Assembly (NCBI GenBank): GCA_017410375.1
Contig: JAFQQW010000051.1
Location: forward strand, 102,733-166,732
Reading direction: 5' to 3'
DNA from: Clostridia bacterium
GTDB lineage: Bacteria; Bacillota; Clostridia; RGIG6154
DNA length: 64,000 nt
The notes under the pieces are model-generated. The model was not told the origin of the DNA and ran no database searches. It saw nothing but the letters and a program-made list of their open reading frames with translations. Shown piece after piece: positions 10,247 through 29,608 of the stretch. The position numbers were made by a program, and so were the translations under genes. Numbering within the stretch: the first letter of the stretch is position 1; the number at the start of each line of letters is the position of its first letter.

Positions 10247-10270
10247 AATGTAGTCTTTAAACGATTACTC

Positions 10271-10430
10271 CATAAATTTGACTGATTAACCATAAATTTC
10301 ACGGTTTCTTAAAAATTTGACGATTACCCTATAAATTTCACGAATACCCCATAAATTTCACGAATACCCCATAAATTTCACGATTACTATAAAAGTTTCA
10401 CGATTACTGTTAAAATTTCACGATTTGAAT
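10271..10430. repeat. Tandem array A: 8 units of exactly 20 bp, core AAATTTCACGATTAC (iteron-like)
   Basis: Units start at 10271, 10291, 10311, 10331, 10351, 10371, 10391 and 10411; two are identical (ataaatttcacgaatacccc). Confidence 0.85.
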
Positions 10431-10440
10431 ATAAAAAAAT

Positions 10441-10481
10441 AACCGCTACCCGGAATTTTACGCTCGGATAGCGGTGTTTTT
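10441..10481. terminator. Bidirectional rho-independent terminator (ccgctacccgga...tcggatagcgg, T-runs on both sides)
   Basis: Imperfect 11-bp stem followed by TGTTTTT on plus and TTATTTTTTT on minus. Confidence 0.6.
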
Positions 10482-10520
10482 GTGTATGAAATTATAATGA
10501 GAAGCCCGAAAAATGCTTAA

Positions 10521-10567
10521 ATAAAGGCAAAAATAAAAGGACAACAATTCTATCAAAACCGTTGTCC
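10521..10567 (-). terminator. Hairpin ggacaac-N15-gttgtcc followed by T-rich run on minus strand; a copy of the tRNA-operon terminator seen at 29553-29599
   Basis: 7-bp stem and 15-nt loop, then TTTTATTTTTGCCTTT on the minus strand. Confidence 0.5.
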
Positions 10568-10599
10568 TTATGTGGGTAAAGACCACAACTTTAATAGAA

Positions 10600-10720
10600 A
10601 GTTTCATATTTAACCCGTATGGTTTCAAATTCAAAAATACGGTTTCATTTTCAGAGGTGCGGTTTCATTTAAGTAATTATGGTTTCATTTTAAAAGGTAC
10701 GGTTTCAAATATCATTATTG
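10600..10720. repeat. Tandem array B: 5-6 units of 20 bp with core ACGGTTTCATTT, unique to copy 1
   Basis: Units start at 10621, 10641, 10661, 10681 and 10701, with a degenerate unit at 10600. Confidence 0.8.
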
Positions 10721-11386
10721 TCAGAAAAGTCTTGATTCCATAAAATATAACAATGTCCGCCCCCACTCTTACGCAAATAATCGTACACCCAACAAAGCAG
10801 AAAGCATGTTTTTCGCTAAACAAAGCCAATAATATAAAAAAGCAATCGAACACATCCGGTTCGATTGTAATTTTTTTATTCAAACTAAATCAGGCAAATA
10901 TTAATAGGGATGAAAAGGACAGCTTTACGCTGCCCTTTTCTGTCTGTTTGCTTTTAAAGCAATCCGATTCTTACATGCAACAGATAAACACGTAAAAAGT
11001 TCTGACATAAGGGTGAATTGTTCCTTGCATGAATACAAGCAAAAGTGCAAAGAAAATTAAAATGCCGGATTGTTTTTTAGTTGATATACATATCATGGAT
11101 TATGTATAAATTGTACCGTCAAAAACAAGAAAATCCGGTGCAAGGTGACGAAGCTTGCAACATTTCTCCGTCGCTGTCTTTTGGTTAGGAAGACCGAAAA
11201 GTTGGTTAGGTTTTTCGGACAGAAAAGTTTGAATTTTCATAATATTTAGCGCAGATAAGGAAGGTTGAGTATATTTTACGAGCAAAGGCTAGCAACCTCT
11301 TTGCCGCCCCTTAGGCGTAAGGGGAATTTCTTTATCTGAGCCATGCAAACAAGGATTCATTTCCTTGGTGCAGACAAAATTATCGT

Positions 11387-28423: not shown

Positions 28424-28444
28424 ATAGCTCCTGCCAAACCAAAT

Positions 28445-28476
28445 CGCCACCTGTTAATTTTCGGGTGGCGTTTTTC
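28445..28476 (+). terminator. Rho-independent terminator after the 1666-aa gene (cgccacc-N12-ggtggcg plus TTTTT)
   Basis: 7-bp GC-rich stem followed by T5. Confidence 0.7.
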
Positions 28477-28594
28477 TATGCTCAAAATTCTATCATTTAA
28501 AAGCAATTTTCCAAATGATACATCCTATGGATTCATCAGAAAAAATAACAAACCGATAGCTGATTTAGTATCAACTATCGGTTCTTTTTGTTAC

Positions 28595-28890
28595 TCATGT
28601 ATTCAGTTTATAAACATCCTCAATGGCTTTTTGAGAACGGATGGCATCCTCTGCCGGAATGGGAACGTCGCATTCACCCAAGACCGCTTTGCCGAAGGCT
28701 TCTATTTCTTTGGTGTACATATTTCCGAAAGTAACCTCTAACGGAACGGGTACAACCATGCTTCGGTTCTGGTCGGCATCATAACCGCCTGCATCCGAAA
28801 CGGCAAGAACTTCAACACGTCCCTCTTCCACTTGCAATAATGTGCCCTTGGCAACCACTGAGCCTTTTGCACCGTAAAAAGAAAGACTTC
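28595..28890 (-). pseudogene. C-terminal fragment of a Gfo/Idh/MocA oxidoreductase (truncated remnant)
   Basis: Only ~95 aa (…EIEAFGKAVLGECDVPIPAEDAIRSQKAIEDVYKLNT) resemble the family C-terminus; the upstream part of the ORF is antisense to the AraC fragment. Confidence 0.5.
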
Positions 28891-28895
28891 TCACC

Positions 28896-29387
28896 ATGAA
28901 AAAATATCGCGACGAGCTTCCGCTATATAATTTAGAACAAATTAAAAGCATTTCCAATATTGCGCAGCTTCTTGTCAAGCACATTCTGCTGGAAAACATG
29001 CTTACTCCCGAATATGATGAAAACATAAGCGAAGCTGTCTGTTATATCCACGAAAATCTAAAGACGCCTCTTACAATTCAGGACATTGCCCAAAGTGCCA
29101 ACATTTCCAAAAGTGCACTATACCGCAATTTTCACATTTCTTTTGGTTGTACCGTAATTGAACATGTGACCAAAAAGCACATTGAAAAAGCCATAGAGCT
29201 GATGCGCGAAGAAAAACTGACTATTGAAGAGCTTGCTCTGCGGATAGGCTTTTCAAGTAGTTCCTATTTCAGTAAAATGTTCAAAAAAGTAACAGGGGTT
29301 TCTCCGTTGAAATATTATAGGGTACATTTTACATGGTTGCTCCATAAATTTAGCGATTTTCTTAAAAATTTGACGATTACCCCATAA
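28896..29387 (+). pseudogene. AraC-family HTH domain fragment without N-terminal sensor domain and without RBS; reads through into the repeat element
   Basis: Complete AraC HTH (…IAQSANISKSALYRNF…IGFSSSSYFSKMFKKVTGVSPLKYYR); abuts the oxidoreductase fragment at 28890/28896 with no promoter space. Confidence 0.5.
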
Positions 29388-29604
29388 GTTTCACGATTAC
29401 TCAAAAATTTCACGATTACCCCATAAGTTTGACGATTACCCTATAAATTTCACGATTTGAATATAAAAAAATAACCGCTACCCGGAATTTTACGCTCGGA
29501 TAGCGGTGTTTTTATGTTTGAAATTATAATGAGAAACCTGGAAATGGCTTAAATAAAAGCAAAAATAAAAGGACAACAATTCTATCAAAGTTGTTGTCCT
29601 TATG

Positions 29605-29608
<4 letters not shown>
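29336..29608. repeat. Composite repeat element copy 2: 20-bp tandem array (about 6 units, 29344-29460), bidirectional terminator (29473-29513), A-rich spacer, tRNA-operon terminator hairpin (29553-29599)
   Basis: Homologous to 10261-10585 in the same orientation; ends exactly at the 3' CCA of tRNA-His. Confidence 0.8.

Follow-up and report, generated by a model that had tools for sequence, protein, structure and literature searches.

The window analysed here, a 64,000-nt stretch of a Clostridia genome, contains a ~300-bp non-coding module twice, once directly against a tRNA operon and once 19 kb away, with a block of accessory genes in between. This raises the question of whether the two copies are the ends of a discrete tRNA-associated island, copies of a dispersed element that bracket the block incidentally, or traces of the way in which the DNA beside the tRNA genes was built up.

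Anatomy of the two module copies

The module is present as two collinear, diverged copies, each carrying in order a 20-bp array, a bidirectional terminator hairpin, an A-rich spacer and a second hairpin. The features of the copies and of the adjacent operon are as follows.

10257..10576, plus strand: module copy 1 (distal), with array, core terminator, spacer, hairpin 2 and a terminal ATGTGGG
10257..10435, plus strand: array of copy 1, ~9 units
10413-10481, equal to 29445-29513: 69-nt identical tract (last array unit, A-run and core hairpin)
10442..10475 in copy 1 and 29474-29507 in copy 2: core terminator hairpin, with a U-run after the hairpin on both strands
10537..10569, minus strand: hairpin 2 of copy 1, with TTTTATTTTT coming next on the minus strand
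29316..29608, plus strand: module copy 2 (tRNA-proximal), its right end overlapping the last 4 nt of tRNA-His
29329..29467, plus strand: array of copy 2, ~7 units, the first of which are read as the tail of a truncated AraC ORF
29569..29601, minus strand: hairpin 2 of copy 2, a predicted intrinsic terminator directly 3' of tRNA-His
29605..29882, minus strand: tRNA-Gly(tcc), tRNA-Arg(tct), tRNA-His(gtg) operon, with a consensus promoter at 29929-29901
29605-29681, minus strand: tRNA-His, its CCA end adjoining copy 2
29725-29801, minus strand: tRNA-Arg
29809-29882, minus strand: tRNA-Gly

In ungapped register (10370-10576 against 29402-29608) the copies are identical at 186 of 207 positions (89.9%), which bears out the report in a preliminary description of this DNA that two collinear copies flank an accessory block. 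Gapped homology reaches leftward through the arrays to ~10257 and 29329. A GTACA common to both copies, at 10233-10237 in copy 1 and 29322 in copy 2, is a possible left terminus, and the left end of copy 2, TTATAGGGTACATTTTA, is shared with the copy of a conspecific strain (L006). No target-site duplication was found in the module flanks, and the ends (GTACAT... and ...ATGTGGG) contain no terminal inverted repeats beyond 4-5 complementary nucleotides. The identical tract, previously given as 61 bp, measures 69 nt; if 21 mismatches are scattered randomly over 207 positions, the probability of a run at least this long is 0.0026. The 20-bp arrays reported earlier were present in both copies, with the unit counts corrected to the values listed above.

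For the core hairpin, the RNA of the minus strand gives the better fold (-18.2 kcal/mol, z -4.8). Hairpin 2 differs between the copies by three adjacent substitutions (10558-10560, ACC in copy 1 versus GTT). These had been described as a compensatory change in the stem; they are in fact one-sided, and swap A-U for G.U pairs in the minus-strand RNA with the structure preserved. By eye, in a comparison that was not scored, hairpin 2 resembles the tRNA-His terminators of L006 and of a different species (L016), which start CATAAG..AGGAC. Copy 1 ends in tgtggg (10571-10576), the same six bases as at 29603-29608, and copy 2 adjoins the CCA end of tRNA-His and supplies the terminator of the operon through hairpin 2, both as previously described. 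Rfam covariance models run over the window returned only the three tRNAs at or above the gathering score.

The boundary at the 3' end of tRNA-His

Four relatives share synteny with the window to the right of tRNA-His, and this breaks off at the 3' end of the tRNA, at ~29600 (tblastx and blastn; nucleotide identity of the core to the window 97.8% for L006, 82% for L016, 81% for L019 and 71% for L020). The DNA distal to tRNA-His differs between strains and species. GC3 is 0.42-0.54 in the core genes versus 0.28-0.38 in all genes left of tRNA-His. The break lies at tRNA-His with none at copy 1, the left flank being as low as the block. The GC skew that the preliminary description had suggested looking for is thus present at tRNA-His, but low GC3 continues unchanged past copy 1. 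Because it runs on into the RHS/1144-aa region, copy 1 is a landmark within a variable zone that spans at least 39 kb, and not its outer border. The features of the block and its left flank are as follows.

1190-6673: RHS toxin gene, which comes after the 1144-aa gene
6687..10121, minus strand: gene for a 1144-aa secreted protein, downstream of copy 1 on the minus strand, with GC3 as low as the block
10198-10171, minus strand: promoter-like site near the 1144-aa gene
10577..29315: bracketed block, 18.7 kb, GC 0.386, GC3 0.28-0.37
28595..28890, minus strand: GFO/IDH/MocA oxidoreductase remnant, 5'-truncated, C-terminal domain only
28896..29387, plus strand: AraC-family remnant, 5'-truncated, HTH domain only, reading into the array of copy 2

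The block encodes a 768-aa secreted protein, a creatininase-family protein, a 1798-aa Cu_amine_oxidN1/malectin protein, a GFO/IDH/MocA oxidoreductase, AraC and BNR_2 proteins and a 1666-aa protein, followed by the gene remnants. Decayed gene remnants had been noted in the block; they were found at the copy 2 end, and 10577-11387 shows no coding remnant. We rejected the idea that the remnants (28.6-29.4 kb) are closely paralogous to the pair of complete genes at 20.1-22.2 kb, as the AraC proteins share 34% identity and the GFO match was not significant. An agr-like locus (LytTR regulator, histidine kinase and AgrB) lies ~15 kb away in the same zone. No integrase or recombinase was found in the block (Pfam, all large ORFs from 1 to 29.4 kb) or in ~9.3 kb further left (L029 gene table), so that the earlier statement that none is visible holds for this wider region as well.

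The part of the tRNA that is duplicated amounts to 4 nt (CCCA, the discriminator and CCA). To the right of copy 1 no further tRNA similarity was detected, local alignment being no better than shuffles, and a candidate tRNA-His remnant there was rejected on this result. Separately, a 12-nt match between the sequence right of copy 1 and the junction of L034 was borderline (p ~0.01) and was not relied on.

Relatives, too, show direct repeats at the 3' end of tRNA-His or a disrupted tRNA-His. L020 carries a 19-bp direct repeat, CGCCCCATAAAAAACACCC; in L006, CCCACA repeats flank a 190-bp insert; and in L034 tRNA-His is cut off in the T-stem with its 3' end inverted. These features are recombination scars. 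The tRNA-associated island that had been proposed is therefore recovered in part. A sharp boundary at the tRNA-His 3' end, accessory variable DNA beyond it, and repeats or disruption at this end in relatives all stand, but a discrete classical island bounded by the repeats does not, given the lack of an integrase, the 4 nt of tRNA and the low GC3 past copy 1. Like a classical tRNA island, the locus has an insertion at a tRNA 3' end with a break of synteny (~29600). Unlike one, it has no integrase inside, and its repeats contain CCCA and downstream sequence only instead of a 3' part of the tRNA (typically at least 15 nt). Its composition departs from that of the core, with the edge at tRNA-His and not at copy 1.

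We favour, with a probability of about 0.5, the reading that successive insertions have built up a zone anchored at tRNA-His, in which copy 1 is a junction module that was displaced. On the minus strand the module consists of the last 4 nt of tRNA-His and CA, hairpin 2, a spacer of ~60 nt, the bidirectional terminator and the 20-bp array, and its native place would be in the 3' flank of the Gly-Arg-His tRNA operon. The low-GC, strain-variable zone of at least 39 kb distal to tRNA-His would have been assembled from cassettes (giant secreted proteins, AraC regulators, sugar-related enzymes, the RHS toxin and the agr-like locus), growing by insertion beside the tRNA-His 3' end. Incoming DNA may have borne its own version of the module at its tRNA-proximal end, now copy 2, and pushed the resident module 19 kb away to become copy 1, which still carries the CCCA of the tRNA end; of the insertions, the 18.7-kb block next to the tRNA would therefore be the latest. 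No recombinase was found in the block, and its decay has already begun, two genes at the proximal end being truncated. Recombination may have been site-specific or homology-assisted. The present role of the repeats would be that of terminators and passive substrates of homologous recombination, with gene conversion, array slippage or deletion of the block as possible outcomes. In favour of this reading are the breaks of synteny and GC3 at tRNA-His, the scars in relatives, the likeness of hairpin 2 to tRNA-His terminators and, as set out below, the contexts of the L006 and L016 copies, the single polarity, the retained CCCACA and module identities that conflict with the core genome. The missing recombinase, the mere 4 nt of duplicated tRNA and the lack of a strain with a block-less junction speak against it.

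Decayed elements have been described to accrete in tandem where a target gene ends, tRNA genes among them (PMC5704250). Our locus resembles accreted islands and CIMEs of the ICESt1/ICESt3 type (PMC5704250) in its hotspot at a tRNA 3' end, cargo of atypical composition, direct repeats around a segment free of integration genes, an internal repeat as an older junction, and gene remnants. It is unlike them in that the repeat (~290 bp, 90% identical) is the downstream terminator region of the tRNA with a 20-bp array, not the tRNA 3' end, of which it holds 4 nt, and in that ~73 kb contains no cognate integrase. The site is a recombination hotspot in an uncultured lineage of gut Clostridia, which swaps large cassettes of secreted-protein and glycan-related genes at one tRNA-anchored site with no visible recombinase. 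This is real but fairly ordinary genome plasticity, a well-documented instance of a common phenomenon and not a new principle.

A stricter interpretation is that the block is an integrase-less, cis-mobilizable element (CIME), with the modules as functional attL and attR, the arrays as arm-type or accessory-protein sites, and a putative integrase encoded elsewhere that could excise a circle. [quoted passage not shown] The 69-nt tract common to the direct repeats, the position of this block against a tRNA 3' end, and the direct repeats at the tRNA-His 3' end of relatives, typical of site-specific integration, are consistent with this, as is the described concept of CIMEs and accretion (PMC5704250). 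However, the repeat holds just 4 nt of the tRNA and extends over 290 bp at 90% identity instead of being a short identical core, and no integrase was found in ~73 kb of this genome. We consider this interpretation unlikely. To our knowledge, a 20-bp period with 7-9 units is also unlike arm-type sites.

Module copies in relatives

Four copies of the module are known from three genomes, in four flank contexts: copy 1, copy 2 and one each in L006 and L016. An nhmmer search over all fetched loci (a few metagenome assemblies, with this genome covered over ~73 kb) recovered only the latter two beyond those of the window. In L006 the module is flanked by different DNA on both sides; homologues of a gene neighbouring it lie in unrelated context. 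The L016 copy is partial and sits at a cassette boundary in the variable region, at a distance of 4.5 kb from tRNA-His. All four copies contain TTTCACGATTTGAATATAAAAAAATAACCGCTACCC unchanged, and homology of the L016 copy stops right after its last base. The left 39 nt of the 69-nt identical tract are invariant across the four copies, and this segment could reflect selection instead of transfer. Polarity relative to tRNA-His is the same for all four copies, an argument that rests on three independent copies, and displaced copies retain CCCACA.

Copy 1 and the L016 copy are identical at 63 of 64 positions, while the core genes are 82% identical. Within the species, copy 1 is closer to the L006 copy (92.3%) than copy 2 is (86.7%), with the core at 97.8%; the L006 copy is a mosaic of copy-1-like and copy-2-like sites. 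Judged from these identities, the module phylogeny is at odds with the core genome. The module is thereby a small, trackable marker for finding and comparing the variable zone in metagenomes, with a phylogeny decoupled from the core.

The same comparison bears on whether the arrangement reflects a scaffold mis-joined at the repeat, or a simple in-situ duplication of the module unrelated to acquisition of the block. The sequence comes from a metagenome scaffold, and several other contigs break inside the module. However, it is free of Ns, the two junctions of the block were found again in scaffold_36 loci, in three further similar places each, and the repeats are therefore not an assembly artefact. 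The copies are 10% different and hence assemblable, and the closer match of the L006 copy to copy 1 is unlike that of a recent local duplicate. Together, mis-joining and in-situ duplication are very improbable.

The preliminary description had also raised recombination between copies of a dispersed element, and had stated that a ubiquitous intergenic repeat, or a block conserved at this site in all relatives, would speak against an island boundary. The suggestion was partly right, in that L006 and L016 carry the module in other contexts. Across the sequence covered, the element is not ubiquitous, and relatives do not conserve the block at this site; no strain with a simple block-less junction was found among them. 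As a rival, this explanation holds that the module is an autonomous REP- or MITE-like intergenic repeat that spreads, or stays, between convergent genes for its terminator function, with bracketing of the block incidental and rearrangement by RecA recombination only. Its four contexts in three genomes, three of four between convergent transcription units, agree with this, as do the two hairpins, both good predicted terminators, and the mosaic L006 copy, which points to exchange between copies.

Known families of this kind (REP/BIME, Correia and BOX/RUP-type elements) are short non-coding units with stable hairpins, often between convergent genes. They occur in several contexts and as variant mosaics, and seed homologous recombination. 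The module is likewise short, hairpin-bearing and mosaic, lies in several contexts, often between convergent genes, and can seed homologous recombination. Unlike them, it has a very low copy number in the sampled sequence, occupies one accessory zone in one polarity, carries a 20-bp array of variable length, and shows neither terminal inverted repeats nor target duplications, as described above. Two copies lie in ~73 kb of this genome. Core sequence contained no copy, either over its 34 kb in the window or in other fetched loci, and all copies are less than 20 kb from tRNA-His. The module was not found in 185,579 GTDB representative genomes, where a three-unit array pattern gave 3 matches that we rejected as chance matches to coding repeats in unrelated MAGs. 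JGI metagenomes gave 0 matches for a 33-nt core and 0 for an RNA-like module pattern, and blastn against PLSDB (plasmids) and INPHARED (phages) gave none. Searches of IMG/VR with the array pattern and a module 16-mer returned chance matches in coding DNA only. A dispersed repeat seems a rather unlikely explanation, and we retain the displaced junction module as the preferred one.

The 20-bp arrays

The array unit consists of a 12-nt core, TTTCACGATTAC, and a 7-8-nt A-rich spacer, and the number of units per module copy ranges from 3 to 9. Further features were found right of copy 1.

10601..10720, plus strand: a second, different 20-bp array of ~6 units, core GGTTTCAWWT, found only right of copy 1
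10718-10746, plus strand: promoter-like TTGTCA-17-TAAAAT, within 10718..10877
10842-10868, plus strand: terminator followed by a T-run, within 10718..10877

Tandem direct repeats with a conserved core and variable spacer are found in iterons, parC centromeres and OmpR/LytTR sites; in iteron origins and partition centromeres, units of 17-22 bp lie beside a rep or par gene. The period of ~20 bp and the adjoining A/T-rich DNA and hairpins are reminiscent of these. Unlike iteron or operator arrays, those of the module have no adjacent rep, par or partner regulator gene (no rep or par domains were found in the neighbouring ORFs), and their unit number varies. AgrA binds paired direct repeats upstream of its promoters (PMC4227749).

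The arrays might accordingly be operators for a direct-repeat-binding protein, such as the LytTR regulator of the agr-like locus, an AraC-family protein or a small HTH protein, with the module as a reusable promoter/terminator control cassette. The 12-nt conserved core, variable spacer and period of two helical turns point this way, as do the second array, which stops 11 bp upstream of a -35-like hexamer, the agr-like locus in the same zone, and an array with core AGCTAAATT that lies upstream of a gene at the same site in strain L019. However, in copy 1 at least ~60 bp separate array 1 from the closest promoter-like site, in copy 2 and L006 it occupies a 3' UTR position, and 7-9 units far exceed the usual two boxes. 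The period fits the ~20-21 bp of LytTR operators, but their consensus is matched at 6/9 only in our own comparison, and neither the agr promoters nor other sequences contain pairs of the array core. The link to LytTR is therefore kept only as a minor rival, and a regulatory role of the arrays is quite improbable. Should protein binding to the array be found, the array may serve as the handle of the exchange mechanism.

Array cores that are unrelated to one another, three in number (TTTCACGATTAC, GGTTTCAWWT and AGCTAAATT), recur from strain to strain at this one chromosomal site. It is conceivable, though we give it little credence, that the ~20-bp arrays are recognition arrays of an undescribed system of cassette capture or mobilisation at the tRNA-His 3' flank, possibly acting through a trans-acting recombinase or an oriT- or origin-like function. 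The module would then be a mobile junction by which accessory cassettes pass from species to species in this lineage of rumen and gut Clostridia. Finally, the promoter-like site that adjoins the second array and the terminator downstream of it could together define a putative C-rich transcript of ~125 nt (10752-10877).

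Composition and gene content of the accessory zone

The window corresponds to 129524-193523 of the 246,765-bp ENA metagenome scaffold XIEF21-1_SAMN15829893 scaffold_36, and the fetched locus L009 matches window 20646-41872 at 100% identity. Since the window contains zero Ns and each block junction was seen again at three further similar places in the assembly collection, a scaffolding artefact is ruled out. The host is an uncultured spore-forming Clostridia bacterium, as judged from the YabP, YabQ, DivIC, ClpXP and trigger factor genes adjoining the tRNAs.

GC3 is 0.28-0.38 in every gene left of tRNA-His, in the block and left flank alike, and 0.42-0.54 in the core genes (29.9-59.4 kb). 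The composition boundary is therefore tRNA-His and not copy 1.

Genes and gene remnants of the block and its left flank
Block: 768-aa secreted protein
Block: creatininase-family protein
Block: 1798-aa protein with Cu_amine_oxidN1, malectin and GH127-like matches
Block: GFO/IDH/MocA oxidoreductase
Block: AraC regulator
Block: BNR_2 protein
Block: 1666-aa protein
28595-28890, minus strand: GFO C-terminal remnant, tRNA-proximal end of block
28896-29387: AraC C-terminal remnant, tRNA-proximal end of block, running past 29315 into copy 2
Left of copy 1: 1144-aa secreted protein and RHS toxin genes
Further ~9.3 kb leftward (L029): orphan RHS fragment, HTH_3 protein, agr-like locus

The decayed genes described previously were recovered as the GFO and AraC remnants, which abut at their truncated 5' ends, an arrangement that is evidence of a deletion. 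No recombinase domain was found in the block, which spans 10577-29315, and no integrase in the ~9.3 kb further left.

Next after the RHS toxin gene (1190-6673) come a small ORF and an orphan fragment of an RHS gene (genes 733-1185 and 124-678). A ~350-bp repeat (94-450 and 2923-3280, 93% identity) fits the way in which displaced C-terminal toxin modules of RHS genes are usually arranged. The agr-like quorum-sensing locus at L029 13824-17648, ~2.6-6.5 kb beyond the left edge of the window, belongs to this low-GC accessory zone. It comprises genes for an HTH_3 protein, a LytTR response regulator, a HATPase_c_5 histidine kinase and AgrB and a 49-aa AgrD-like ORF; the next gene encodes at least 1454 aa.

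Anatomy and kinship of the junction module

Sequence reading, a repeat finder, TRF and alignments all confirmed the two collinear direct repeats first described by eye. In ungapped register (10370-10576 against 29402-29608) 186/207 positions are identical, and gapped alignment carries the homology through the arrays to ~10257 / 29329. The identical core noted earlier is present, but by alignment it measures 69 nt (10413-10481 = 29445-29513) and not 61; such a run is improbable under random placement of the 21 mismatches (P = 0.0026).

Parts of the module and adjacent features
Part 1, both copies: 20-bp array, ~9 units in copy 1 and ~7 in copy 2; unit of a 12-nt core TTTCACGATTAC, most positions nearly invariant, and a 7-8-nt A-rich spacer
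Part 2, both copies: first hairpin, ACCGCTACCCGG...CTCGGATAGCGGT, U-runs on both strands
Part 3, both copies: A-rich spacer, ~60 nt
Part 4, both copies: hairpin 2, AAGGACAAC...GTTGTCCTT
10601-10720: array 2, six 20-bp units, core GGTTTCAWWT, immediately ahead of a promoter-like site and terminator
29605-29882, minus strand: tRNA Gly-Arg-His operon, perfect promoter at 29929-29901

Minus-strand RNA gives the better fold for both hairpins, with a U-run after each on that strand, and the module is therefore predicted to supply the tRNA Gly-Arg-His operon with tandem terminators. The hairpin 2 difference at 10558-10560 had been taken as compensatory; it is one-sided, converting A-U to G.U pairs in the minus-strand RNA. 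Copy 1 does end in tgtggg; in copy 2 the same bases represent CA, the CCA end and the discriminator of tRNA-His.

The conserved core, variable spacer and period of two helical turns of the array suggest protein binding. The LytTR regulator encoded nearby is an obvious candidate, given that AgrA-type proteins bind direct repeats (PMC4227749); no array motif pairs were found in the agr-like promoters. Beside array 2, a promoter-like site and intrinsic terminator (10718-10877) could specify a transcript of ~125 nt with C-rich stretches CCGCCCCCAC and ACACCCAAC, and no homologue was found in the other loci.

An nhmmer profile built from the three full copies and searched against all fetched DNA matched only the two window copies and the relatives L006 and L016. 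The module is thus dispersed to the extent of these additional copies, and core sequence contains none. The four copies differ in their flanks and share one polarity relative to tRNA-His. Copy 1 is 91.2% identical to copy 2 and 92.3% to the L006 module, and copy 2 is 86.7% identical to the latter; the L006 variant sites agree with copy 1 at 13 positions and with copy 2 at 3, and the cross-species L016 fragment matches copy 1 at 98%. These values are discordant with the core genome, and the module accordingly belongs to the exchanged accessory pool. Segment AAATTTCACGATTTGAATATAAAAAAATAACCGCTACCC is invariant in 4/4 copies, and L016 homology stops exactly after it. Searches of GTDB representative genomes and IMG/VR gave chance matches only, JGI metagenomes gave 0 matches, and PLSDB, INPHARED and Rfam gave none.

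The tRNA-His 3' flank in relatives

The contigs of relatives were chosen because they carry the neighbouring MBL-fold gene or a homologue of it. All fetched relatives are syntenic on the core side, and similarity ends at the tRNA-His 3' end, in support of the proposed island-type boundary.

Sequence following tRNA-His in relatives, with core identity to the window
L006 (GCA_054267915.1), 97.8%, same species: own terminator, ~190-bp structured insert ending ...CTCCCTACACCCACA, module with 3 array units, unrelated small gene
L016, 82%: terminator starting CATAAG..AGGACACC, truncated structured insert, different cassette (AraC, FAD oxidoreductase, peptidase M55, AP_endonuc_2)
L019, 81%: terminator and different ~19-20-bp array, core AGCTAAATT, ahead of a gene
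L020, 71%: structured insert between 19-bp direct repeats CGCCCCATAAAAAACACCC, the repeat starting inside the tRNA
L034, 73%: tRNA-His cut off after GACTCCCT, inverted tRNA-His 3' end ~60 nt later

On the evidence of these five loci, the tRNA-His 3' end is a recurrent recombination site in the lineage. The L034 arrangement suggests inversion or integration within tRNA-His; in this contig (80% MBL identity, 5030-5160) the truncation falls in the T-stem and the inverted 3' end is at the contig end. By eye, the L016 terminator resembles hairpin 2. In L019 (95% MBL identity, 6065-6250), three direct AGCTAAATT units at ~19-20-bp spacing precede copies of AATTTAGCT in inverted orientation. A gene begins shortly after this array, at 6256.

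A hairpin-rich conserved module of ~150 nt (GGGAGGAGAACTGCC...GTCTCGAGYGAGC...GCAGAGTCTCCCTAC), outside the window, lies just downstream of tRNA-His in L006 (4270-4426) and L020 (11019-11167), truncated in L016 (7045-7125) and L017 (6962-7027); contigs L017 and L021 both terminate inside it. At its 3' end it mimics the T-arm and acceptor end of tRNA-His. When L006 and L020 are aligned, two-sided changes occur in 7/40 predicted pairs and 0 are broken; Rfam gave no match. It is a candidate either for a new structured RNA or for an integrative-element end.

History and classification of the locus

Accretion at tRNA-His is the most economical history. DNA arriving beside tRNA-His, joined site-specifically or with the assistance of homology, would carry a proximal module of its own, now copy 2, and the module already resident there would be moved to the distal side as copy 1, still bearing the CCCA stub. 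The L016 layout is parallel: a partial module 4.5 kb out, 63/64 identical to copy 1, sits at the internal border to a cassette of AraC and a 1638-aa Cu_amine_oxidN1 protein. Decayed integrative elements (CIMEs) accrete in tandem at target-gene ends, tRNA genes included (PMC5704250), and the proposed history of this locus resembles that process.

The breaks in synteny and GC3 at tRNA-His give partial support to the tRNA-associated island that had been proposed. However, two defining features of a classical island are direct repeats that include the 3' part of the tRNA and an integrase; the repeats here take in only CCCA of the tRNA, and no integrase was found in the block and the ~9.3 kb of L029. 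We therefore file the block neither as a classical island nor as a proven CIME. It represents tRNA-anchored genome plasticity in a lineage-specific form that includes an unusual repeated junction module. Its interest is modest to low, which would change if the array and invariant core turned out to be a recombination or mobilisation site. At present the module repeats are long and similar enough (69-nt identical tract) to permit loss of the block through RecA; no strain lacking the block was found.

Elsewhere in the window, a coding 75-bp tandem repeat (57/15-bp sub-period) lies at 32618-32920 near the 3' end of a trigger-factor-like gene, and a perfect 18-bp x 3.7 repeat of GGTTCTTCGGGTATTTCA at 62759-62832 within a 1010-aa gene. 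The latter gene and one of 428 aa form a second low-GC3 segment (59461-63798, GC3 0.34-0.35), which starts abruptly after core genes with GC3 ~0.50 and may be another accessory patch.
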